Part shown: one piece after another, positions 4,179 through 43,426 of the stretch
Position numbering within the stretch: position 1 is the first letter of the stretch
How the letters are laid out: every line of letters begins with the position of its first letter
DNA from: a virus
IMG/VR virus record: IMGVR_UViG_3300029623_000016
Coordinates: 1 to 43,426 of that record
DNA: 43,426 bases
Reading direction: 5' to 3' (one strand)
The notes under the pieces: model-generated
Told to the model about the DNA's origin: nothing
Database searches by the model: none
Seen by the model: the letters and a program-made list of their open reading frames with translations, nothing else
Made by a program: the position numbers and the translations under genes

Positions 4179-4904
4179 CTTTGTCTTACGACAATAAAAA
4201 AGTTTTTTAAAAAGCTATTGCCGAGGGCGGCAGCCCTTCTTTTTACGTCCTGTATAATAATATAGGGCGTAGCCTTATGTCAAGTAATATTATTCTTGCT
4301 TAATAATAATACTTAATTTTAGTGGTAGGTCGAGAGAGGATATTCTATATAGAGACCCCCTCCCCCTCTGGATAGAGTACTTATAACAGCTTCGCCGTCT
4401 CTAAATTTATTTTTTATTATTTTTAGACTTTTTATCTCTATAAAATAATACACTTATCTGTCAAATACACTTATGCGTCAATAATATATATGGTGGCGGA
4501 TTAAATACACTTGCAACGGCGGGAAAGGCTAACGCCTTATTATCAATAATATATAAATAATACTTTAAAATATTATTTTAACTTATAAATAATACTGATA
4601 TCATAATATTTATGAACATAAGTAATAATCCCATTTATACACAATTTATATCATTTTTTATATTTATCTTGTCAATTTATAATATCATTATTATTTATGA
4701 GACAAAATAATATTCTAAATTACAAAATAATATTGATAATAATATATATCAGATAATCTCAAATTCTATTATTTTTATTAGCTTTCTCTCTATTTATAAT
4801 AATATTATTATTTTAATATCATAATATGATTATACGAATGTTTCAATATTATTTTATATTTTTTGCTTGACAAGGCGGGAAAAATCTATCTAAAAACGCT
4901 ATGA

Positions 4905-4972
4905 TAAATTATATCATTATTTATCATTATTTATTATTATTTATTATATTATATCATTATTTATATCATTTT
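4905..4972. repeat. Tandem AT-rich repeat array (units approximately ATCATTATTTAT)
   Basis: Seen directly: atcattatttatcattatttattattatttattatattatatcattatttatatcatt. Confidence 0.6.
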
Positions 4973-5425
4973 AATATAAAATATCCATCTTTTTGATGAT
5001 TTTGATGTTTTGCGGGTTTCATTTTCCGGTTTGCATATCCCTCTTGTTAAGTGCTTAAAATCCCAAATTTTTAAAAAAAATAATAAATAAAATATATTGG
5101 ATTTATTTGGATTTATATTGATTTCCAAAAAATCAAGCAAAAAATCGCGCTAAAACGGCAAAAAGCGACAAAAATCCTTCCAAGCCATCAAAATTTTGTA
5201 TTTTCCTAAAAAGCTCAATATCAGTTGCTTGCGCAATCAAAACATTCAAAGTTTCAATCCGCTTTCTTTTGAAGCTTTTGATTGCTCCGCAATTTGATAA
5301 ATATTATCCGATTATAATCCCCGCCCTCATCTCTTATCATCTCCTATCATAAGGGTTTTTTATCCCCTTAATAATCATCTACTTAAAAAAGTAAAAATTT
5401 TTTTTGAAAAATTGAAAAAAGGGGC

Positions 5426-28586: not shown

Positions 28587-30683
28587 TTAGTTATTTCCTA
28601 CAAGCGGGGAAGCTCCGATTGCACCTTGGTTTAGAAGAGATGATATTGCGGCTGGGTCGAATCCACGAGAACCTCCACTATTATAGAATTTAGCCCTAGC
28701 TTCGTCCGCTTTAATTTTAGCTTCAATTTCTTTATCTACATAGCGGTTTTCTAGCCTTACTCTTTCTGCTTGCGCTCGTTTTAATTCTATTTCTGCTTTC
28801 TTTTTACGCTCTTCTGAAACATTACTATTAAACGCCATAGCTGCTTCTAGCATTTTTTGTTGTTCTTTGAGAGAAGCATTGAGTAAATCGAAGTTTACTT
28901 TGCTAACTTGTTCAATAACATTCTGTTCAGACTTAGCGCGGTCTGAACCACTCGGTAGGTCGTTTGTATAACCAAGAAGCCTTCTTAATCTCCTTACTTC
29001 TGGGTCTCTATCAACCGCCGATTGTACGTTTCTTTCCCAAACCTCAAACGGATTTTCTAACCTACGAGCGGCCAAAGGTGCAGTTATTACAGCACCAACT
29101 TTATTCCACGGGTCGTCTCTATAATTGTCGGCGGCACGCGTTTCAGCATCAAATAGTTGTCTTTCTAATAGAACACGAGTTTGCCATTGATATGGGTCCA
29201 TCGCATGCATATTTCTTAGACCTTTATAAGTCTTTTTTAACTCTTCTCGATACTTATTATTTTCTTCTGTATTTTGTTGCAACCTTTTTTGAAATTCTGC
29301 AAACATCGGTTGAACCGGAACAGTATCATCGTCGTTATAAGAAAGTCTATCACTTACTACATCAATAGGTTCGGAAGCATATAAATTAGGTGCTCCCGCC
29401 CTAGAAGCTATCATCACAGCGTCATCGTTAGTAGTATTGACTTTATTGGTAGAATTACCACTGGTAGTTGTAGCTGGGACAGCTGTATCTGTACCAGTTG
29501 GTTTTAGACTAGTAGGTTCAGACAAAGCAACTTCCGCAAGTCTAGCTTCGGCTTCTGCGTCATAAGGCAGGTCTGACATAGCATCTCCGAGAGCGTTTCC
29601 GAGTCCGCCTGTTAGTCCAATTCCCGTATAAGTACGACCGAAATTGGGAAGAGCGTTTCTTATGTCTTGTCTAGCAAGTCTATTAAGCCATGCTTCTCGT
29701 ATTGTATTATCGCGTGCAACATCTACGAGTTCTGAATTAGACATACCACGCCAAGCGCGGGGAAGATTCTCACCCGCCGCACGTGCAATCGCTTCTGCCT
29801 CAACTATTTTATTGCGAGCCGCGTTGTTTATCGCAGAACCAAGGTTCGTTCTAAGCATAGGCTGTCTTGCTGTGGCTATATCACCAGCTATATTTGCACC
29901 AGAGTTCATGTTGTTAAGAATAGCATATGTCTCTGGGTCTAGACGACCACCTCGCACAAACATATCTACCGTGTCATCGATGCTATTAGACGTGTTAATC
30001 GAACTACGTAGTAAATTATCATTACGTACTATATCAGCAACAGCTGACCTTACACCATTTGGATTCTCAGCCGCTTGCAAAAAACGTATTGCATTGTCAT
30101 TTGTAAAGGTAGTTCCGCGAGCAAAAGGTGTCATCTCATCGATAGTTCGACCAGCTCTACTAATAGCTTGTGCCGCTTGCCCCGCCCTCATTGCATTTCT
30201 AGCCGCGCTTGACGCTAGTGCGTTTCTAGCCGCTCCACGTATTAGGCTTTTGGCTGCACTTGCACCTGGAATAACAACTCCGGCGGCATTAAGAGCATGT
30301 TCCATCGGAGTTAACGATGAACCATCTTCTCCCATAATATAGTTCAACCTACGCTGGTCTTCTGCTTGTCTTTGAGCGTCAATTTCGTTAATCCTGCTTA
30401 CAATATCACTAATAGATTTTCCAGTTGCCGCATTATAGAGTGCACTTCCTAGTTGATGCAATCCAGACACAGCTCTATTTCCGAGCCAGTTCATAGGTTC
30501 ATTTATACCAGCTAGTATTCGTCCAACCATACTTGGGCTTTCAGGCGGGGGAAATCCAACATTAGAATCAAATTGGAGCAAACCATTATCGAGAGCGCTT
30601 ATAGTCCCGAGGTCGGGATAATAATCACTTGCATTTAATGCAAGCATGTCTTCTGGTGACAGAGTGGAATAGTCTATTGGCAT
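28587..30683 (-). CDS. Internal virion protein (698 aa) with a C-terminal charged, helical, coiled-coil-like region
   Basis: Position before the giant protein. Ala/Asn/Arg-rich. C-terminal KKAEIELKRAQAERVRLENRYVDKEIEAKIKADEARAK. Confidence 0.45.
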   Translation of the reverse strand: MPIDYSTLSPEDMLALNASDYYPDLGTISALDNGLLQFDSNVGFPPPESPSMVGRILAGINEPMNWLGNRAVSGLHQLGSALYNAATGKSISDIVSRINEIDAQRQAEDQRRLNYIMGEDGSSLTPMEHALNAAGVVIPGASAAKSLIRGAARNALASSAARNAMRAGQAAQAISRAGRTIDEMTPFARGTTFTNDNAIRFLQAAENPNGVRSAVADIVRNDNLLRSSINTSNSIDDTVDMFVRGGRLDPETYAILNNMNSGANIAGDIATARQPMLRTNLGSAINNAARNKIVEAEAIARAAGENLPRAWRGMSNSELVDVARDNTIREAWLNRLARQDIRNALPNFGRTYTGIGLTGGLGNALGDAMSDLPYDAEAEARLAEVALSEPTSLKPTGTDTAVPATTTSGNSTNKVNTTNDDAVMIASRAGAPNLYASEPIDVVSDRLSYNDDDTVPVQPMFAEFQKRLQQNTEENNKYREELKKTYKGLRNMHAMDPYQWQTRVLLERQLFDAETRAADNYRDDPWNKVGAVITAPLAARRLENPFEVWERNVQSAVDRDPEVRRLRRLLGYTNDLPSGSDRAKSEQNVIEQVSKVNFDLLNASLKEQQKMLEAAMAFNSNVSEERKKKAEIELKRAQAERVRLENRYVDKEIEAKIKADEARAKFYNSGGSRGFDPAAISSLLNQGAIGASPLVGNN

Positions 30684-32863: not shown

Positions 32864-33456
32864 TATCGTTCTTTCGTTTTAACTATTTTAACTGTTAAGC
32901 TAACAGCTTTTAGGCGGGAGATGTAATTCTCTCCGTCATTAGTATACTCTAATTCAAAAGCTATGTATTTATATTCTCCCGCCCGTCTTAGCCAATACTG
33001 TAAGTATCCTTCTGGATTAACTGTCGCGGGGATTTCAATCCAATTATCAGGGTCTCCATAGTTTTGTCTTGCACTAACACGTAATATAGGCTGAATAGTT
33101 CCACCACAATCATATGCAACATTTAAAGATATTAAACTCTTAACGTTCTTTAATGTTTCTAATGCAAATGTATTTGTACGTAAACGAACAGTTATAGGTT
33201 TATCTTTTGTTCCGTACTGGTCGTAAACTATTCTGAATATATATGTTTTAGATTTATCAGGATTAGGAAGCTGAAATATATCAGAATTGCCCATAATCAC
33301 GGGCGGGCGCGGGATAGGATTAAAAAGCCAATCTCCATTTCCTGTATAGCCTTTTTCATTAAGGTCGTTCCAAGTATATTGCAAGCTCCCTTGCGGAAGC
33401 ATATCATAATATCGAACAACTTGGCTCGTATCAAATAACTTATTATATATGCTCAT
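32863..33456 (-). CDS. Hypothetical tail-associated protein (197 aa)
   Basis: ORF in the tail block. Confidence 0.4.
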   Translation of the reverse strand: MSIYNKLFDTSQVVRYYDMLPQGSLQYTWNDLNEKGYTGNGDWLFNPIPRPPVIMGNSDIFQLPNPDKSKTYIFRIVYDQYGTKDKPITVRLRTNTFALETLKNVKSLISLNVAYDCGGTIQPILRVSARQNYGDPDNWIEIPATVNPEGYLQYWLRRAGEYKYIAFELEYTNDGENYISRLKAVSLTVKIVKTKER

Positions 33457-34570
33457 CGTTAATCACCCTCGTTGTCCATATCTTATCTCGTATACTATAC
33501 TTGATACACCAGAAGTCTCCAGAGTCTTTTTTCTGGAATACCCAACTTACTGCATCTTGGTCTAATTCATAATGACCTATGATGTTATCTGTCTTAGTAG
33601 TCTCAGCTACTTGATTAAACCAATTCCAAATGGGGTCTCCGATGGGTACAAGAGTTAAACCATCAAGTGCATAAAAGTTATCTTTTCCAATGAAATATGA
33701 AATTTCATTTGCTGTTACTACACTGTAATGATAAATACAACCTGTGTTAGATGTGAGAACGGTAGTTCTGAACCTATTATCATGTCCCTCATAATCAGAC
33801 CTCCAGATAGAGTTTTTAGTAAACGTTATGACTACACCTTCCGTCCAGGCTAATCCGGTAACTTCATTTGCATTTGCACCAAGATTAAAAATATCAGCTT
33901 CTTTCGACCTTGTGACTTCAAAATCCTCTGGATTGTTTATATCACTCCACATGATAGTTCCAGGATTATCTTCTCCGTCTATAAGAAGATTTCCTAAAAA
34001 CAGTCTATCTTTGGTAACTAAAATATATTTTGCACTTATATAAACGGCAGTTTCTTTTTCACCTTTTAATATCTTATAGGTTGGAGTTACTAATTCTATC
34101 GAAAACGGTATACCTAACGTAGTAGAAGAACCAGGAATTATTTTATATAGAGGTAAACCTTTACGAGTCATATAAGCAGTGGATATTTCAGTCCATACCC
34201 ACTGCGCAAATTGCATAGTTCCATCATCGTAATTTTTATAAACAGTTCCATCTTCAAGAGTAAATTGACCTACTTCTAATAATGGAATAATTTGCTCATC
34301 AGGGTCTTTTCTATCACAATAATAAAATTTATCATCAATTTTTATACCAAAATATTCTATATTATCTTGAAGTGTTATAGTGACAGCATAACCATCTACC
34401 TGCCCAGTTCCGTTAAAAACAGCATATGGTACATATGATGGTTCAGACCTCATAGAGCCGTCTTCGACATAACCATTCTCAACTTCTTTAAAATACAAAG
34501 AAGTTGAAATGTCATTTATATCTTGACGTATACCAAAGTTAATCGGTATTACTATTTCATTCCTTGCCAT
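33443..34570 (-). CDS. Hypothetical tail protein (375 aa)
   Basis: ORF in the tail block. Confidence 0.4.
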   Translation of the reverse strand: MARNEIVIPINFGIRQDINDISTSLYFKEVENGYVEDGSMRSEPSYVPYAVFNGTGQVDGYAVTITLQDNIEYFGIKIDDKFYYCDRKDPDEQIIPLLEVGQFTLEDGTVYKNYDDGTMQFAQWVWTEISTAYMTRKGLPLYKIIPGSSTTLGIPFSIELVTPTYKILKGEKETAVYISAKYILVTKDRLFLGNLLIDGEDNPGTIMWSDINNPEDFEVTRSKEADIFNLGANANEVTGLAWTEGVVITFTKNSIWRSDYEGHDNRFRTTVLTSNTGCIYHYSVVTANEISYFIGKDNFYALDGLTLVPIGDPIWNWFNQVAETTKTDNIIGHYELDQDAVSWVFQKKDSGDFWCIKYSIRDKIWTTRVINDEHI

Positions 34571-36062
34571 CGTCTAACCTTTTCCAGAAATTCATTCCTA
34601 ATATAGGTAAAACACTTTCGTAATTTTTACCTACCTCTATATCAGTTACTCTATATGTTTCGTTGTTAAAAGGCATATTTAAATTTATAGTCATTTCTAA
34701 ATCAACTAACCACCATAAAGTATCCTCTTCTAATTCGATTTCTTGAGGGTCTACTACGGAGAATACGATATATCCATATGCTCTATCAGTGTATGTGTTT
34801 TTAATATTATTAAAGTAAACACCATTTCTTACAGCTTCTTCGATAGTTGTTTCACCTATAATAATACCATCAGGATTCCATACAGGGTCTTTCGACAAAG
34901 TTATTTTAACTTTATAATTTTTGTATTTCGAGAGGTATAAATTTCCCGACAATGCTAAATTAGGAAAAATATACAAATACTTTTGGGAAAATAGAGACCA
35001 AGCATTTTTTAAAGAAAATGACACATCGGTTATATTAGCTAAATATCCTACCGGAGTATAGAAATAAATTTTTTGAAGTTTTGCTACATCATTAGCTTCT
35101 TTATTTACTCGAAGCATGTTGCGATAAGTTCTATTAGAATGTTTTTCTACTATTTGTTCCAAAGTACAATTAGCGTATTGTGTTGCCTTTAAAGTCCAAT
35201 TTAATTCATAATTAGGTGTCCATCTAGAATTATTACCTATCGCAGTAATGTTAATAAACGCGTTATTCCTTAATGAAAATCCTTGTATATTACTTGTGCG
35301 TTCTCCAAATGACACTATAAAATACTTTGCTCCTTGTAAATCATTCTTAGTAAAAGTTCTCTTATACGACTGCGTTTTACCTAAATGAAATAATCCAAAT
35401 GAATGGTATCTGCTATCAGATGAATTTTTAGACGCTAACCAAAAATTAACAGTTAAATCTGGGCAAGAAAGAATACCCCATGACGTTGCACCGCCGTTAT
35501 TTAATGATAAGTCTAGATTAGTTACGTCAGTTATAGATAAAGGTATAATAACATATAATCTACTCCTTATATAACTATTTGACGATAACTGTATAGTTTC
35601 ACCATCTATTATCTTAGTAGTCAATACTCCGTCATTATCTTCATAGTCTCCCCACTTAATCCAATTTAAGGTATAATCCGTTATAGGAATACCAACAAAA
35701 TCATCAGAAGTTCCATATGCAAATGTATTGAAATTAGCGTTGCCAGTAGCACATATAGCTTGACTATTTAATTTAATCCAACGACCAGAAAATTTGCTAC
35801 TATTATTCGGGTCTATATCAGACCTCAAAGCTATCACTTGATTATTTCTACTATATACTTGACTGTCTTTAAAATTATTTAATATTGCATTATCGTCTGA
35901 TATAAATATATCAGCTAATGTTTGAAGTAAACCATCATCGTTTTTTAAAAATCTTTTTATCTGTCTAAGAGCACGAGCGTCAACATTAAAACCATCTGCA
36001 TCTTCAGGTGTGCTTGCCCGTAAATTTCTTAAACTACTTCCACTGTAAGTGTCATTACTCAT
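34557..36062 (-). CDS. Tail fibre/tailspike-like protein B (501 aa). N-terminal ~120 aa homologous to the neighbouring 335-aa protein
   Basis: Shared N-terminus (YSG...PED...RQ[VI]KRFL...), divergent Asn/Ser/Thr-rich C-terminus. Confidence 0.5.
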   Translation of the reverse strand: MSNDTYSGSSLRNLRASTPEDADGFNVDARALRQIKRFLKNDDGLLQTLADIFISDDNAILNNFKDSQVYSRNNQVIALRSDIDPNNSSKFSGRWIKLNSQAICATGNANFNTFAYGTSDDFVGIPITDYTLNWIKWGDYEDNDGVLTTKIIDGETIQLSSNSYIRSRLYVIIPLSITDVTNLDLSLNNGGATSWGILSCPDLTVNFWLASKNSSDSRYHSFGLFHLGKTQSYKRTFTKNDLQGAKYFIVSFGERTSNIQGFSLRNNAFINITAIGNNSRWTPNYELNWTLKATQYANCTLEQIVEKHSNRTYRNMLRVNKEANDVAKLQKIYFYTPVGYLANITDVSFSLKNAWSLFSQKYLYIFPNLALSGNLYLSKYKNYKVKITLSKDPVWNPDGIIIGETTIEEAVRNGVYFNNIKNTYTDRAYGYIVFSVVDPQEIELEEDTLWWLVDLEMTINLNMPFNNETYRVTDIEVGKNYESVLPILGMNFWKRLDDGKE

Positions 36063-37069
36063 TATACGTCCTCGATAGCAGGTGATTCATCACTAGTTTT
36101 GACCCAAATATTAACTCCGATAAAAGGTACAGATTCTTGGTAAGAAGCATCTGCTACTACTTCATAAGATGAAGTAAAATTAGCCACCATAGATGCACTC
36201 ATTGCAGAAGCTATTACATTACTCCCAGCTCCATATTTATTAGTTATCCATTCGTCTGGATTATCACAATTATAAGTAGCAATAAGCCAACCGTCAGTGT
36301 CGGAAAATTTTATTTCACTACTACCCGTATACGATGACTGTATTCCTAAGGTATTATTTTTGGGTGCAAAAGTTCCTTTATAAAGTTCCGTCCCAATGTT
36401 AACTCCATAAGTATTATTATTGGAAAAAGAGATTCTTATTGGAAGAGAAGTTAATCTATCATAGGCAACATTTAATTCATCTAAATTTATAGTATATATA
36501 AGAGTAGCATTAGTTAAGTTATTACGAGGAATTTTAAGCGCAGAATAACACCTTCTATAATGAAACCATGTACCATCGTCATTTGATACATAATGAAACC
36601 ATCTGTAATATGGTGTATTATTATCTAGTCCTGTCTCTAATCTTTTACTAGTAGTGCCTCCCCATTCTGCGTCAAAAGCAGAGCCATCTACCGATATGTT
36701 CGTTTTATTAGGAGTAAAAGCTACTATACTTCCAGTACTAACTAAAAGCTTACCAGAAATTTTCTCCCACGTTCCATTAAAATAAAGTTGATTTTCTTCA
36801 TCATTTGGATTAAACTCATTATCCATAGTAAAGTAAAGTTCACCTATTTCTGGAACTCTAATAAGTTTATTAAGTGCATCTAATATAGGATTAGAAGTTT
36901 CAGATGTTATCCATTCCGTTATCTTAGCTTCAAGCCCCTCTGGTCGTGTCAAAAACCTCTTAACTTGACGCATAGCTGCCGCATGGTATCCAGCAAGTTC
37001 AGTATCTTCTGGGTACTGCGGATTTATATCATTAAAAGTATTTCCAGAATAGTCAGGCATATTAACCAA
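36062..37069 (-). CDS. Tail fibre/tailspike-like protein A (335 aa). Paralog sharing an N-terminal anchor domain with the 501-aa protein
   Basis: N-terminal alignment of DYSGNTFNDINPQYPEDTELAGYHAAAMRQVKRFL with TYSGSSLRNLRASTPEDADGFNVDARALRQIKRFL. Confidence 0.5.
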   Translation of the reverse strand: MVNMPDYSGNTFNDINPQYPEDTELAGYHAAAMRQVKRFLTRPEGLEAKITEWITSETSNPILDALNKLIRVPEIGELYFTMDNEFNPNDEENQLYFNGTWEKISGKLLVSTGSIVAFTPNKTNISVDGSAFDAEWGGTTSKRLETGLDNNTPYYRWFHYVSNDDGTWFHYRRCYSALKIPRNNLTNATLIYTINLDELNVAYDRLTSLPIRISFSNNNTYGVNIGTELYKGTFAPKNNTLGIQSSYTGSSEIKFSDTDGWLIATYNCDNPDEWITNKYGAGSNVIASAMSASMVANFTSSYEVVADASYQESVPFIGVNIWVKTSDESPAIEDV

Positions 37070-37688
37070 AAATTTGAATTATTCCTACTTGTTTAAATCC
37101 AGAGTTCCAAGTCTCTACATCAAGAAAAGCACTATCTCGTGACTGTTTATTAGCGGCAATGATATTTTCATCTTCTTGTAAGAACATATACATTCTATCA
37201 AGCGTATCATAATAGACATAATCGTGTATTGCAGGCAAAAATTCATTTGCGTACTTATCATTAACTTCTCGGCTCTTAGTAATATTAAGATACCCTTGGA
37301 TACTTAATTCCTCATTAAATCTAGGTGGAAGTATAATAATATTTCCACGCTTCGCCAAAGTATAAGCAGGCAAGCATTGAGGAGATTTAAGATAAACGTC
37401 CGCAACCATAGACGTAAATGGCATAAGTCTCCATTGCTGTCCACCTTTACCAAGTACAAGTTCAATACGTTTAAATGTGTTATTTAAATCTAGGTCGCTC
37501 GTCTTGTCAGACGAGTCATTGATTGCATTGACGTTAATAACGTCGTTGAAAATTTCAAAATCTATCTTTATAAGAAGTCTATTTATAGACTCGCTTACAA
37601 AATTAGAAACAGGTTCTTTCCAATAATCGTCATCTTCTGGACGATTAACGGTTCTCAAAACTTCTAAGGTTATATCTTCTTCTGTCAT
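37062..37688 (-). CDS. Putative head-tail adaptor or tail tubular protein (208 aa)
   Basis: Position after the capsid genes, size similar to podoviral adaptor/gp11-like proteins. Positional only. Confidence 0.3.
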   Translation of the reverse strand: MTEEDITLEVLRTVNRPEDDDYWKEPVSNFVSESINRLLIKIDFEIFNDVINVNAINDSSDKTSDLDLNNTFKRIELVLGKGGQQWRLMPFTSMVADVYLKSPQCLPAYTLAKRGNIIILPPRFNEELSIQGYLNITKSREVNDKYANEFLPAIHDYVYYDTLDRMYMFLQEDENIIAANKQSRDSAFLDVETWNSGFKQVGIIQIFG

Positions 37689-37755
37689 AATATGACCTTT
37701 CTATAATAACGACAAGGGCTACACCCAACGAGAAGTGTAGCCCTTGCGTCATTCT

Positions 37756-37968
37756 TTAACTCCCTTGAAGTCCACCACCAGGTTTAGCACCCGAAGGTAT
37801 ACCACCTTTGTTAGATGTAGGAGCAGGCGATTGACTGCCTATGTTTTTCGTATCGAAGTTTCCGCCACCGGTCGGAGGCTGGTTTCCTTTCCAACTACGA
37901 GCATCAACACCAGACGGCGGAGTTGCTCCGTACAAATCTACGCCTTTTGCTTTTCCATCAAGAGCCAT
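37756..37968 (-). CDS. Gly/Pro-rich small protein (70 aa) immediately downstream of the capsid gene. Decoration or minor capsid candidate
   Basis: Start taken at MALDGKAKG, preceded by RBS aaaaaggaaaa. Composition GGGNF...GGIPSGAKPGGGLQGS. Confidence 0.4.
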   Translation of the reverse strand: MALDGKAKGVDLYGATPPSGVDARSWKGNQPPTGGGNFDTKNIGSQSPAPTSNKGGIPSGAKPGGGLQGS

Positions 37969-37996
37969 AGTATTTTCCTTTTTTGATTGTTTACTT

Positions 37997-39412
37997 CTAG
38001 TCAACTTCAAGCTCGGGATTGAACACAGACATATTCTTAATGAACATGTGGTTCATCGGCTTCCAGAACTCCAACGTACCTTCGGAAAGCCATTCATCTT
38101 TCCTGCCGTCGAAGTCATTCGACTGTATGTTAGTTCTGACCTGCGTATCCCTGTCCCTCAACGGTCTCCAATTTATCGACCATATGTCTACTATGAGAGC
38201 AGACTTACGGTAAATCGGATTTTCATTGAAGAGCGGGTGCGTCACAAATATGAGAGTGCCGAAAGCGGTGATAAGCTTGTTAAATTCAAGCCCAAACGCT
38301 TTCTGACCAACTTCCCAGTGATACGAACCCTGAGCACGCATTGCCTTAGACATCGCACGCATAACGTCAGAACCGCAGAGAACGAGACGTTCAGCAGTCT
38401 TGGCGTTGTAGTACAGATTGATGTTAGACAACCACTTTTCAAGCAAGTCGATATTGAACTCACCAGACGCGTTTTCTATAATACGTTTTTCAGGGTCGTC
38501 ATCAGTCGTGGACGGTTGCTTGAAGCTATAAGGATTCCATACCTGACCGTTAACCATAATACCGTTAGAGCCAGCGTCCCAAGCTTCAAGAAATTCGAGG
38601 ATACCCGACATCGTACGAGTTTCCGTCACAGAACCATCAGCGTTCGTTATCGTCCTGTTAGAACGTTTCGAGAACAACAGCGATTTTTCAAGCTTGACAT
38701 AGTGGTCTCTCGCAGCGTCCATAGCACGCTTCTTATACGGACCAGACTGGTCGAACTCCAAATCCTGCTTTATCGCCGAACCAGTGAAGATGAACGGTTC
38801 TTTGAATATCTGAGTCTGATTCTGCAAGAAAGTCGGAATACGAGTACCACGAGGAGTACCGCTATGTCCACCTTCCTCGAAAGCAGAACCGATAACGTCT
38901 ATCGACGTACCAGCCGCATAGTCAGTCAAATTACCCGAAGCAACAGCAAAGTCACGTATCGGAAGTACTTCAACATAACCGTTAACAGTGTTGTCCGCAA
39001 CACCAGGAGTGACAGCCGTTATACGAGCAAGTGCATTCCAAGTATGGAAACGAACAACATCTCCAACAGTCAAAAGACCAACCGAAGTAGCTTTAATATA
39101 AAGCTTGTCAGCGGTGGTATACGTTTTAGCCGTAATCACAGTACCATCATTAGCATCACCAGTGGTGGGAGCATTAGTGGTAATAGGATTCGTGCCGCGA
39201 GTAGTTATGCTCGGAGAACGGTATATCTCCTCTATCCACTCGTGTTTAGTGTTCGCAATGGGGTCAACATTCGCCCAAGCAATAAGAGCCGTAAGCGGAG
39301 CACCACCATTAGGAAACGCGTTTATAATCGTGCGACGAAGAGACCTATGAATGAGGTCTTTATCGCGAAACTGCTCCACCGAAGGGAAGCCAAGTATTAC
39401 GTTTTCTGCCAT
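37997..39412 (-). CDS. Major capsid protein (471 aa)
   Basis: Order portal, scaffold, then this gene. Size is right. Elevated GC content typical of a highly expressed or conserved gene. Fold not verifiable by eye. Confidence 0.6.
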   Translation of the reverse strand: MAENVILGFPSVEQFRDKDLIHRSLRRTIINAFPNGGAPLTALIAWANVDPIANTKHEWIEEIYRSPSITTRGTNPITTNAPTTGDANDGTVITAKTYTTADKLYIKATSVGLLTVGDVVRFHTWNALARITAVTPGVADNTVNGYVEVLPIRDFAVASGNLTDYAAGTSIDVIGSAFEEGGHSGTPRGTRIPTFLQNQTQIFKEPFIFTGSAIKQDLEFDQSGPYKKRAMDAARDHYVKLEKSLLFSKRSNRTITNADGSVTETRTMSGILEFLEAWDAGSNGIMVNGQVWNPYSFKQPSTTDDDPEKRIIENASGEFNIDLLEKWLSNINLYYNAKTAERLVLCGSDVMRAMSKAMRAQGSYHWEVGQKAFGLEFNKLITAFGTLIFVTHPLFNENPIYRKSALIVDIWSINWRPLRDRDTQVRTNIQSNDFDGRKDEWLSEGTLEFWKPMNHMFIKNMSVFNPELEVD

Positions 39413-39427
39413 TTTGTGTTTTCCTTA

Positions 39428-40375
39428 TTAGTAGCCAAAGATGCTAAATCCAGCACTTACATTATCTTTGACTGTTTCATTAGGTTTATTTATTACTCCA
39501 CCCGATGAGAATGTGCGCGTTGTCGCTTTTGGAACTGACGTTGTTGCATTCTGTTGTACAGGATTTGCAACAGCACCTCCATTATCGAGTTTGACTTTTG
39601 GGTCAAAGTTAGGAATAGACTGTTTAATTACTTTTGATATTTCATTAACCAGTGTTTCTTTAAATTGTTTTTCCGGAACTTGTAGCAGTTTAGGATTCTG
39701 CTGAGCTATACTAGCGGTCATTACATTAACTACTGACTTGTAAGGAATAAGTCCAGGGTAGTCTTCATAGAACTTAGTTTCCGCTTCATGTGCTGCTTTC
39801 TGCGAAACTTGTGAAAGAACAGGCTGAATATTCTGTGCAAAGAAATTATCAATCCTACCTGCATATTTATTAAGTTCCGCGTTAGCAATAGTCGTTGCCA
39901 TGTTCCTACCATACATTGCTGTACGAATAAGAAGGTCGGTCAACATTGCCGCACGCTCTTCTTCCGGAGTTTCAGACGAAAATATTTTACGAGTCTCTTC
40001 CGGAGTTATAGAAATTTTACCAAGAATACGGTTTGCTTCTTCTATGGTAAGTTCAGGCTTCTTTTCCTGCTGTGCTTTATTCTGTTCAGCATTAACAGCT
40101 GCAACAGCAGACGCAACCGTTTTAGCAAGCTCTATTTGGTCTATACCTTTATTGCCATCGTTAGCGGATTGACCGACTGGTGGCTGACCGCCTTCGGCGG
40201 ACGGTGGCTGGTCGGTTGAAGTTTGGGGTTCCTGTTGCTGTGAAGCGTCAGTCTGCCCCGCCTGCTCATTGCCCGAGCCGGACGGTTCTTGGTTGACCGC
40301 GGGGTTATTACGTTCCAAAGCCATCTGTATCATATCTACATCTGGCTGTTCACCTATGTTGTTTTCATCTGCCAT
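39428..40375 (-). CDS. Scaffolding protein (315 aa)
   Basis: Between portal and capsid. Q/E/P-rich disordered N-terminus followed by helical regions, as scaffolds typically have. Confidence 0.5.
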   Translation of the reverse strand: MADENNIGEQPDVDMIQMALERNNPAVNQEPSGSGNEQAGQTDASQQQEPQTSTDQPPSAEGGQPPVGQSANDGNKGIDQIELAKTVASAVAAVNAEQNKAQQEKKPELTIEEANRILGKISITPEETRKIFSSETPEEERAAMLTDLLIRTAMYGRNMATTIANAELNKYAGRIDNFFAQNIQPVLSQVSQKAAHEAETKFYEDYPGLIPYKSVVNVMTASIAQQNPKLLQVPEKQFKETLVNEISKVIKQSIPNFDPKVKLDNGGAVANPVQQNATTSVPKATTRTFSSGGVINKPNETVKDNVSAGFSIFGY

Positions 40376-42912: not shown

Positions 42913-43350
42913 TTAATTCAACTTTAAAACGTTATTCCTAAAAGAAATGCACCAAGCAGCCTCGCCTCCTACTTCTAAAAAACGATAAGCCAGTATAACT
43001 TTGCGCTCGTCCCATAACCTATGAAGCCAACTCCACAAGCCGCCGTTTGCGTGTCTATACTTAACTTCTGCTATACCGTTCTTTAAAAACTCATTATCAG
43101 CTTTCCTTTGACTTTCTGGTAATCCGTCTGAATGTTCGTACCGCCAGTCATGTATTGCCGCCGTCGCCTGTGCGCAAGCGTATGCCTTAGTCAAAACATT
43201 ACACAACTTTTCGGGCAAAGACGCACCTCCCACTCCGTTACAAACTTCGCAAAGTTCATTGAGTGAAGCATTTGCGAAGTCGTTAGGAAACGAAAGCTTA
43301 GCTGCTTTCGCCACCGATATGAGTTCGAGCATCTGGTCTTGCGTGTACAT
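42913..43350 (-). CDS. Hypothetical protein (145 aa); start codon lies in the terminal overlap
   Basis: ORF. Cys/His-rich (CEVCNG...C...H), possible metal site. Confidence 0.4.
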   Translation of the reverse strand: MYTQDQMLELISVAKAAKLSFPNDFANASLNELCEVCNGVGGASLPEKLCNVLTKAYACAQATAAIHDWRYEHSDGLPESQRKADNEFLKNGIAEVKYRHANGGLWSWLHRLWDERKVILAYRFLEVGGEAAWCISFRNNVLKLN

Positions 43351-43426
43351 TCTTTAAGACTGCGGTTCCTCCTTAACGTCGGAGGGCGGCTCGTTCTCCA
43401 CTTCAATGTCTGCGGGAATCAAGAGC
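43340..43426. repeat. Second copy of the 87-nt terminal overlap
   Basis: Identical to nt 1-87. Confidence 0.85.

Follow-up and report, generated by a model that had tools for sequence, protein, structure and literature searches.

Two adjacent fibre genes in a podovirus-like phage

The 43,426-nucleotide stretch of DNA analysed here (IMG/VR record IMGVR_UViG_3300029623_000016, hereafter the window) carries two adjacent minus-strand genes encoding p335 and p501, which by sequence profiles are remote homologues of the short tail fibres of phages SU10 (gp16) and Pa223 (gp60). The original prediction, made from the DNA alone, described 34557–37069 as tandem fibre or spike genes that share an N-terminal anchor and diverge into unrelated C-terminal domains, read as two receptor-binding proteins docking at one virion site, with either dual or branched host specificity or a cassette-exchange hotspot. 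Both open reading frames (ORFs) are present on the minus strand at that place, of 335 and 501 amino acids (aa), respectively.

36062..37060, minus strand: fibre gene 1, p335 (332 aa from the ATG at 37060; 37069 with a TTG start in the ORF list)
34557..36062, minus strand: fibre gene 2, p501 (501 aa; ATG overlapping the stop of p335 in TAATG and preceded by GAGGA)

Every p335 homologue begins with MPDYSG, so the ATG at 37060, one base past the stop of the upstream gene, is almost certainly the true start; residues are given here in the 335-aa numbering. The two fibre genes are translationally coupled. Full-length homologues were found in metagenomic contigs of ~43–44 kb (23 for p335 and 38 for p501). 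The window itself is a complete phage genome of ~43,339 bp (~43.3 kb) from an uncultured lineage: an exact 87-nt direct repeat joins its two ends (1–87 = 43340–43426), as a short terminal repeat or through the overlap of a circular assembly. Its source is a podovirus-like phage.

The N-terminal similarity of the two proteins is formally significant over ~110 residues. BLASTP aligned p335 residues 7–113 with p501 residues 6–107 at 29% identity (E = 4e-10), and hhalign comparison of the family profiles (24 versus 37 homologues) gave a probability of 98.3% (E = 1.3e-14, 106 columns). These statistics rejected chance similarity of the paralogues. A recent redundant duplicate or a decaying pseudogene was also rejected, as both genes are intact and full length, with ends conserved in dozens of genomes. 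Between the shared ends no sequence similarity was detected by hhalign, with probabilities below 1% for the p335 insert against either of the two p501 modules (D1 and D2) and for D1 against D2; a weak 77% alignment of the inserts was seen only once the shared C-terminal tail was included. A common origin of the p335 insert, D1 and D2 was rejected for want of any hhalign signal. The claim of unrelated C-termini therefore holds for the middle regions but fails for the last ~25–30 residues, which are homologous and share a conserved strand (VPFIGVNIWVKTSD versus LPILGMNFWKRLDD; BLASTP E = 0.027). The predicted richness in Asn, Ser, Thr and Tyr is real but modest: these residues make up 38.6% of the p335 insert, 34.0% of D1 and 31.6% of D2, versus 25.3% of the other structural-module proteins.

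A conserved scaffold split by a variable insert

Sequence conservation, profile matches and AlphaFold2 (AF2) models together divide the two proteins into the following segments.

36935..37060, minus strand: p335 N-terminal anchor, residues 4–45; aligns to SU10 gp16 residues 10–40
36851..36934, minus strand: p335 helical linker, residues 46–73; AF2 helices 46–55 and 61–69, of low confidence; 75.5% mean identity
36722..36850, minus strand: p335 first half of the gp10-C-like central domain, residues 74–116; IGELYFT...NPN...FNGTWEKISGKLLVSTG
36170..36721, minus strand: p335 insert, residues 117–300; one jelly-roll beta-sandwich, a putative receptor-binding module
36089..36169, minus strand: p335 C-terminal closing strand, residues 301–327
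35934..36062, minus strand: p501 N-terminal anchor, residues 1–43; paralogous to the p335 anchor
35733..35933, minus strand: p501 helical linker (44–72) and first half of the central domain (73–110)
35247..35732, minus strand: p501 insert module D1, residues ~111–272; hypervariable, dispensable
34668..35246, minus strand: p501 insert module D2, residues ~273–465; beta-sandwich, moderately conserved, its distal half matching the homologue P0064
34569..34667, minus strand: p501 C-terminal closing strand, residues 466–498; falls in a BLASTP segment (E = 2e-8) against the P0064 C-terminus

When the profile of the shared N-terminal region (N-domain) was searched exhaustively against 1.8 billion representative proteins, nearly all short matches (132–430 aa) carried the N-domain at their N-terminus; a broadened profile in another large-database search found 6 proteins only, far below this yield. 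The shortest relatives (171–196 aa) consist of the anchor, the motif vGdIy.T...NPs..FGGTWe.I..kFLlGaG, then GGe..HtLt.eEmP.H.H, and a terminal pHNNMPPYlaVyIWKK. From about residue 50 to their end they match the full length of Pfam PF21939 (Gp10_C; E down to 1.8e-21, 50–78 bits), and short relatives are assigned to PHROG tail and tail-fibre families. Longer relatives retain the first ~45 Gp10_C positions and the last strand, with other material between. Against the short Gp10_C relatives, the N-domain of p335 scored 99.4% (E = 3.3e-21) and that of p501 98.6% (E = 7.2e-16) in hhalign.

As hhalign gives a single local alignment, the C-terminal strand was tested with purpose-built hidden Markov models (HMMs) against the ORFs of the window. 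With a closing-strand HMM built from distant relatives only, p335 residues 314–327 were the best match among 182 stop-to-stop ORFs (E = 8.6e-5). With an HMM of the p335 family and intermediates, from which the p501 family was excluded, the p501 C-terminus was the only other significant ORF (E = 0.0023; next 1.2). In both proteins, then, the chain appears to leave the central domain and re-enter it, with the closing strand at the extreme C-terminus, marginally so in p501. On these comparisons the "shared N-terminus" comprises an anchor and one half of a domain whose other half is the protein's last strand, and the variable region is an insert. A variable part thus exists as predicted, but it lies inside a split domain rather than forming a C-terminal domain.

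Neither protein reaches the Gp10_C gathering threshold (27 bits, whole domain), and the middle of the domain, GG..H.L...P.H.H, is absent. The window proteins are therefore split, degenerate Gp10_C homologues and not formal members of the family. A PHROG search of p335 and p501 returned weak matches only, one of them a tail protein match to p335 residues 74–114. In AF2 monomer models the predicted local distance difference test score (pLDDT) fell below 50 for p335 residues 1–120 and 299–335 and for p501 residues 1–46, 59–74, 99–121 and 465–489, regions that coincide with the most conserved ends of both proteins. This coincidence suggests that the conserved ends may fold only within an intertwined trimer.

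Relation to the short fibres of SU10 and Pa223

The profile of the short relatives aligned end to end with chain I of PDB 7z47 (267 aa; also 7z4b and 7z4f; E = 1.7e-16), with T4 gp10 residues 447–602 (E ~ 1e-9) and, weakly, with the anchor of the Pa223 fibre (9nxk, 215 aa; E = 0.01). Chain I is gp16, the short tail fibre of SU10 (listed as SU10_016 in its genome record), as its length, Tyr23-Ile24-Tyr25 and histidine pairs match the published description (PMC9509320). A window-clade N-domain profile containing the two paralogues only aligned with gp16 residues 10–40 and 103–146 (92.8%, E = 3.8e-7), and a broader one reached E = 4.7e-9 against 7z47_I. The N-terminal anchor is thus homologous to the dock-binding proximal domain of gp16. 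The N-domain profile showed no similarity to the N-terminus of the adaptor-docking SU10 long fibre gp12 (0.3%), and a long-fibre type was rejected for p335 on this basis.

SU10 gp16 forms trimers, and the trimer base clamps a loop of the nozzle protein that bears three tryptophans with pseudo-threefold symmetry; the central domain of gp16 resembles the tip of T4 gp12, and its receptor-binding domain the tip of gp37 with His-x-His pairs, which are putative metal sites (PMC9509320). The Pa223 fibre docks by the same principle on a three-Trp hub loop (10.1101/2025.06.11.659172). Supporting the predicted fibre identity, the N-domains of p335 and p501 are homologous to the anchor and central domain of gp16, and the genes lie between adaptor and hub-like genes.

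Insert modules resemble carbohydrate-binding folds

AF2 modelled the inserts with higher confidence than the ends (p335 residues 121–298, pLDDT ~90; p501 residues ~123–464, pLDDT 70–90). Foldseek matched the p335 insert to solved folds including the Eph ligand-binding domain, carbohydrate-binding modules (CBM) of families 4, 27 and 35, MAM and the gingipain adhesin (E ~ 1e-5, TM-scores 0.35–0.45); among viral models it resembles phage tail-fibre, host-specificity and lectin-like proteins. The p501 insert, which looks like two beta-sandwich modules, matched the Bacteroides surface glycan-binding protein B (SGBP-B), tandem CBM22 and CBM51, and lectin-like domains of toxins. As ligand-binding folds these are generic; glycan binding is plausible for them, and the models suggest that the inserts probably bind host surface glycans. 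The usual His-x-His tip, which in SU10 gp16 lies at 195 and 231 in our numbering (194/196 and 230/232 in the paper), appears in the models to be replaced by lectin- or CBM-like jelly rolls, one in p335 and two (D1 and D2) in p501.

A bounded hypervariable island in a conserved virion gene block

Between the window and its sister genomes L001 and L002, the portal, capsid, scaffold, adaptor, hub candidate and downstream small proteins are ~89–100% identical, versus 52% and 65% for p335 and 31% and 45% for p501 (L001 and L002, respectively). At the DNA level, identity is 90–98% through the adaptor gene, decays across the p335 start, stays at 22–70% through both fibre genes and returns to 94–96% at ~34,568, beside the p501 stop. 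The two-gene block is the main fast-evolving, sharply bounded island in an otherwise conserved virion gene block. Mean pairwise identities within the two families locate the variation in the inserts:

Anchor: 94.9% in the p335 family, 91.4% in the p501 family
First half of the central domain: 85% in the p335 family, 77% in the p501 family
Insert: 61.5% in p335; in p501, 50.6% for D1 (minimum 11.8%) and 70.5% for D2
Closing strand: 89.1% in the p335 family, 73% in the p501 family

D1 is the hot spot of variation. Between the window and the L001 type it shows no detectable BLAST similarity (E = 0.66), versus E = 1e-31 or better for D2. Moreover, two p501 homologues from different sub-lineages, P0029 (355 aa, in a complete-length 43.7-kb contig) and P0059 (351 aa, in a shorter syntenic 14-kb contig), carry precise in-frame deletions of D1 (p501 residues ~125–270). 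The D1-deleted fibre genes lie in otherwise syntenic phage genomes:

L005 4001–5068: D1-deleted fibre gene
L006 4001–5056: D1-deleted fibre gene

Insert replacement was seen in P0063 (gene 1 of L007), whose two ends match those of p335 (E = 3e-30 and 8e-10) around ~145 unrelated residues. P0064, representing gene 2 of the L007 clade, matches the p501 N-domain, the distal half of D2 and the closing strand, and has no D1. Across 28 scaffold-bearing proteins the inserts fall into 14 mutually unrelated groups. Exchange thus proceeds through internal cassettes (P0063 versus p335), domain loss (P0029 and P0059) or divergence or exchange of the whole block. The segment identities, the D1 deletions and the insert replacement indicate that the locus is an exchange and diversification hot spot, as predicted; its units are the internal inserts and the two-gene block, however, and not C-terminal domains.

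Relatives carry two fibres (335 + 501 aa in the window clade, 175 + 190 aa in L003/L004, 320 + 323 aa in L007) or one (259 aa in L008/L009, 430 aa in L010). The short fibre genes of L003/L004, scored against N-domain profiles for orthology with gene 1 and gene 2, gave 36.1 versus 30.7 and 36.2 versus 33.9 bits, which are small differences. The single 259-aa fibre P0091 (L008 6001–6780) keeps only the ~45-residue anchor, on a body without Gp10_C-like motifs, so the anchor is a separable module.

The only other clearly diverged protein of the structural module is p698 (698 aa, 28587–30683, minus strand), just upstream of a 1507-aa giant protein. It is 73% identical to its counterparts in the sister genomes, forms a second, milder variable spot and is perhaps an ejection protein interacting with the host.

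Gene neighbourhood

In the window and at every related locus the genes run in the order portal, small protein, scaffold, capsid, small protein, a 207–220-aa protein, one or two fibre genes, a 372–384-aa protein, a ~200-aa protein and ejection-protein-like genes. Pfam domains in this phage group include SU10_portal (PF23899), SU10_MCP (PF17236) for the capsid and, via L008, SU10_adaptor (PF24175). At all related loci the fibre genes thus occupy the place between the adaptor and hub/nozzle positions of an SU10-type structural module. The flanking features in the window are:

37712..37747, minus strand: terminator-like hairpin (15-bp stem, 7 GC pairs), separating the capsid block from the tail and adaptor genes
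37062..37688, minus strand: head-to-tail adaptor p208, immediately upstream of p335
33443..34570, minus strand: hub/nozzle candidate p375, directly downstream of p501, whose stop it overlaps by 14 nt

p208 matches the 207-aa protein of L008 (BLASTP E = 3e-24), which passes PF24175 (28.8 bits, cut-off 27); by this sequence match p208 is assigned as the adaptor. Its length equals that of the Pa223 adaptor (208 residues; 10.1101/2025.06.11.659172). p375 matches phrog_3287, a virion structural protein (E = 1.1e-18), and is a putative hub by its gene position, as in Pa223 and SU10. Its Trp343, Trp354 and Trp365, spaced by 11 residues, are invariant across 5 diverged hub-like homologues that are 41–93% identical to it. 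By analogy with W839/W847/W857 of SU10 and W363/W370/W377 of Pa223, these tryptophans are candidates for the fibre dock. In L007 (1998–3116 of a 5.9-kb contig) two ORFs of 99 and 252 aa stand in place of one hub-like gene, which may reflect a frameshift, a misassembly or a genuine break in the gene.

The SU10 record carries an annotated terminator at the position equivalent to the hairpin, which probably lowers tail-gene expression relative to the capsid genes. Elsewhere in the window, an AT-rich array with a 10-nt period (4895–4984; CATTATTTAT-like, 5 overlapping copies) sits in the lowest-GC stretch (31.6%), at the switch of gene orientation, and may be an origin or a regulatory region. A 555-aa ORF at 37841–39508 (plus strand), antisense to the major capsid gene, is almost certainly spurious.

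Among GenBank phages, no match was found by megablast for the structural region or by tblastn for either fibre protein. The capsid alone finds distant relatives there at 22–26% identity, most from the Pa223 group (Bruynoghevirus, ~22%).

Discussion

Based on these data, we propose that p335 and p501 are short side fibres of the SU10 gp16/Pa223 gp60 type, with jelly-roll inserts in a split domain, encoded at a host-range locus; we regard this reading as probable. The ~45-residue N-terminal anchor, whose SU10 counterpart clamps the tryptophan-bearing dock loop of the tail hub, would be followed by short helices and then by a central domain related to the C-terminal domain of the T4 baseplate protein gp10. 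The chain would exit this domain after G-x-W-x-K-(I/L)-x-G...(T/L)G, build the distal module and return, its last ~25 residues supplying the closing strand. The conserved ends would keep the fibre fitted to the virion, with the insert free to diverge, be replaced or be lost, and the two-gene block would act as a host-range locus. Each protein would form homotrimers. Both may use the hub dock loops, six per virion, so that particles would have two binding specificities. The block probably sets host range, because its two genes carry different sugar-binding-like inserts and it is the main fast-evolving spot of the virion block; dual host specificity of the two fibres is plausible.

Several results weigh against this proposal. 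Pfam assigned no family to p335 or p501 even at E ≤ 10, and PDB sequence searches with the p335 and p501 family profiles returned noise only, so that the link to SU10 gp16 and Gp10_C runs through profiles and intermediates. The closing-strand match of p501 is marginal (E = 0.0023) and not significant against the distant-relative HMM. Shallow alignments are an alternative cause of the low AF2 confidence at the ends. The fold matches of the inserts have low TM-scores (0.2–0.45) and jelly rolls are ubiquitous; no His-x-His motif occurs in p335, p501 or their families. As for the hub role of p375, comparison with SU10 gp17 gave a non-significant 2% probability, and a profile search of the PDB returned nothing significant, the Pa223 hub included. 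The anchors themselves bear on whether both fibres use one dock. At the positions of the SU10 dock-clamp triad Tyr23-Ile24-Tyr25, p335 has Leu-Ala-Gly and p501 Gly-Phe-Asn, with little or no variation inside either family. This difference speaks against an identical dock, and the two anchors are 35% identical in the window genome versus 69% in L007.

The differing triads and anchors would be better accommodated if one paralogue sat on the hub loop and the other elsewhere (on the adaptor ring, a different hub surface or the first fibre), the two not being interchangeable. The retention of both paralogues, with gene 1 corresponding to gene 1 and gene 2 to gene 2 across clades, suggests non-redundant roles in keeping with this arrangement. 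It also has precedents, as SU10 carries two fibre tiers, on adaptor and nozzle (PMC9509320), and branched systems with two receptor-binding proteins (RBPs) are well known (PMC6872550). We nevertheless consider it rather unlikely. Both paralogues keep the full gp16-type anchor, and neither shares an N-terminus with the adaptor-docking gp12 by the profile comparison given above. The known branched systems use a short peptide on the second RBP and gp10 D2/D3-like domains on the first, unlike the genes here. In addition, the hub-like proteins of one- and two-fibre phages are collinear, with no extra loop or segment specific to two-fibre phages; this collinearity, together with the invariant W343/W354/W365, favours a shared dock, to which the sequences seem to give a modest edge over separate docks.

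The proteins might instead be mainly structural tail elements, a nozzle extension or baseplate-like part, with variability arising from, for example, the evasion of defences that sense tail proteins. The homology of the conserved scaffold to a baseplate protein domain would fit, as would the incorporation of SU10 short fibres into the extended nozzle (PMC9509320) and the doubt of the Pa223 authors that receptor binding falls chiefly to the homologous Bruynoghevirus fibre, which is highly conserved (10.1101/2025.06.11.659172). We hold this to be improbable, since divergence is centred on surface-type, lectin-like inserts next to anchors conserved at 91–95%, D1 is dispensable and unrelated inserts sit on the same scaffold, a pattern typical of specificity modules; the hub-like protein, moreover, has just 375 aa, without the long nozzle domains of SU10 gp17. 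Co-assembly of the paralogues as heterotrimers, giving one kind of fibre with mixed tips, would be compatible with the homology of anchors, central-domain halves and closing strands and with translational coupling, but it is hardly credible: the trimerising parts are ~30% identical, the insert sizes differ greatly, related phages manage with a single fibre gene, and the solved SU10 and Pa223 fibres are described as single-protein trimers (PMC9509320; 10.1101/2025.06.11.659172).

Short side fibres of the gp16/gp60 type, as we read p335 and p501, are reminiscent of several known systems. The closest is gp16 of Escherichia phage SU10 (Kuravirus; 7z47/7z4b/7z4f chain I; PMC9509320). Shared with it are the anchor and first half of the central domain, a distal module set into the central domain and followed by a closing C-terminal strand of the PPFRAAHIWRRIS type, the gene position between adaptor and hub/nozzle, and portal, capsid and adaptor with SU10-type Pfam domains. 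In contrast to the His-x-His, T4 gp37-tip-like needle of SU10, the distal module of the window proteins is predicted to be a lectin-like jelly roll; the window has two tandem paralogues where SU10 has one gene, lacks SU10-type long fibre genes and does not conserve the Tyr-Ile-Tyr triad, and identity is too low for direct detection. Gp60 of the Pseudomonas phage Pa223 (Bruynoghevirus; 9nxk; 10.1101/2025.06.11.659172), a short trimeric fibre on a three-Trp hub loop, shares the order adaptor (208 aa), fibre, hub and needle and the weak anchor match, but it is a single fibre gene, 90–100% conserved in its genus, with no variable hot spot, whereas the window has two genes that form its main variable island. 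The C-terminal domain of T4 gp10 (PF21939; 2fl8, 2fkk and 5hx2) aligns with the window proteins over its first ~45 positions and last strand; it belongs to the baseplate of a contractile tail, whereas the window proteins would be podovirus fibres and lack the middle of the domain.

Podoviruses with two RBPs include anchor-branch systems (G7C gp66/gp63.1 and the Klebsiella KP32 and KP34 groups) and adapter systems (K1-5 and SP6) (PMC6872550). There too, a conserved structural module is broken by a pair of neighbouring, hypervariable RBP genes, relatives carry one or two RBPs, and intermediate forms with truncated domains occur (PMC6872550). In these systems, however, an anchor is found on the first RBP alone; the second attaches to gp10 D2/D3-like branching domains by way of a conserved peptide of 7–29 residues (PMC6872550). 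Both window proteins carry the full ~110-residue N-domain, with a complete anchor and a part related to the gp10 C-terminal domain (residues 447–602, not D2/D3), and do not belong to the G7C/KP32 type. Their variable part is an internal insert, whereas in the known systems it is an enzymatic domain, either central or C-terminal. RBP genes that are paired and hypervariable are common in phages, and the fibre type itself is known; what is new here is a duplicated, fully anchored short fibre whose putative metal-binding tip is replaced by lectin-like cassettes.

A further possibility, which we advance tentatively and consider doubtful, is that the split central domain is a general insertion platform whose internal cassettes are exchanged, with two such platforms occupying one six-fold set of hub docks to give mixed-fibre virions. 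Receptor-binding modules would then be swapped while the N-terminal anchor and the C-terminal closing strand on either side stayed fixed, and gain, loss or replacement of the tip module D1 would leave assembly undisturbed. The recombination logic would in that case be unlike the textbook C-terminal domain swap, and the scaffold would be a natural plug-in chassis for podovirus host-range engineering.

Whatever the arrangement of the docks, these data assign an uncultured lineage, found in many assemblies of metagenomes, to a tail architecture whose structure is solved, and identify its likely host-range locus to residue level. The part to watch or engineer is the internal insert between two conserved assembly elements, not a C-terminal domain, and an assumption of "conserved N, variable C" in annotation or chimera design would cut these proteins wrongly. 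The natural D1 deletions and the insert replacement offer ready-made design templates. Useful, testable features of this phage lineage are its inserts set within a scaffold, its naturally deleted domains and the question of how two anchored paralogues dock.

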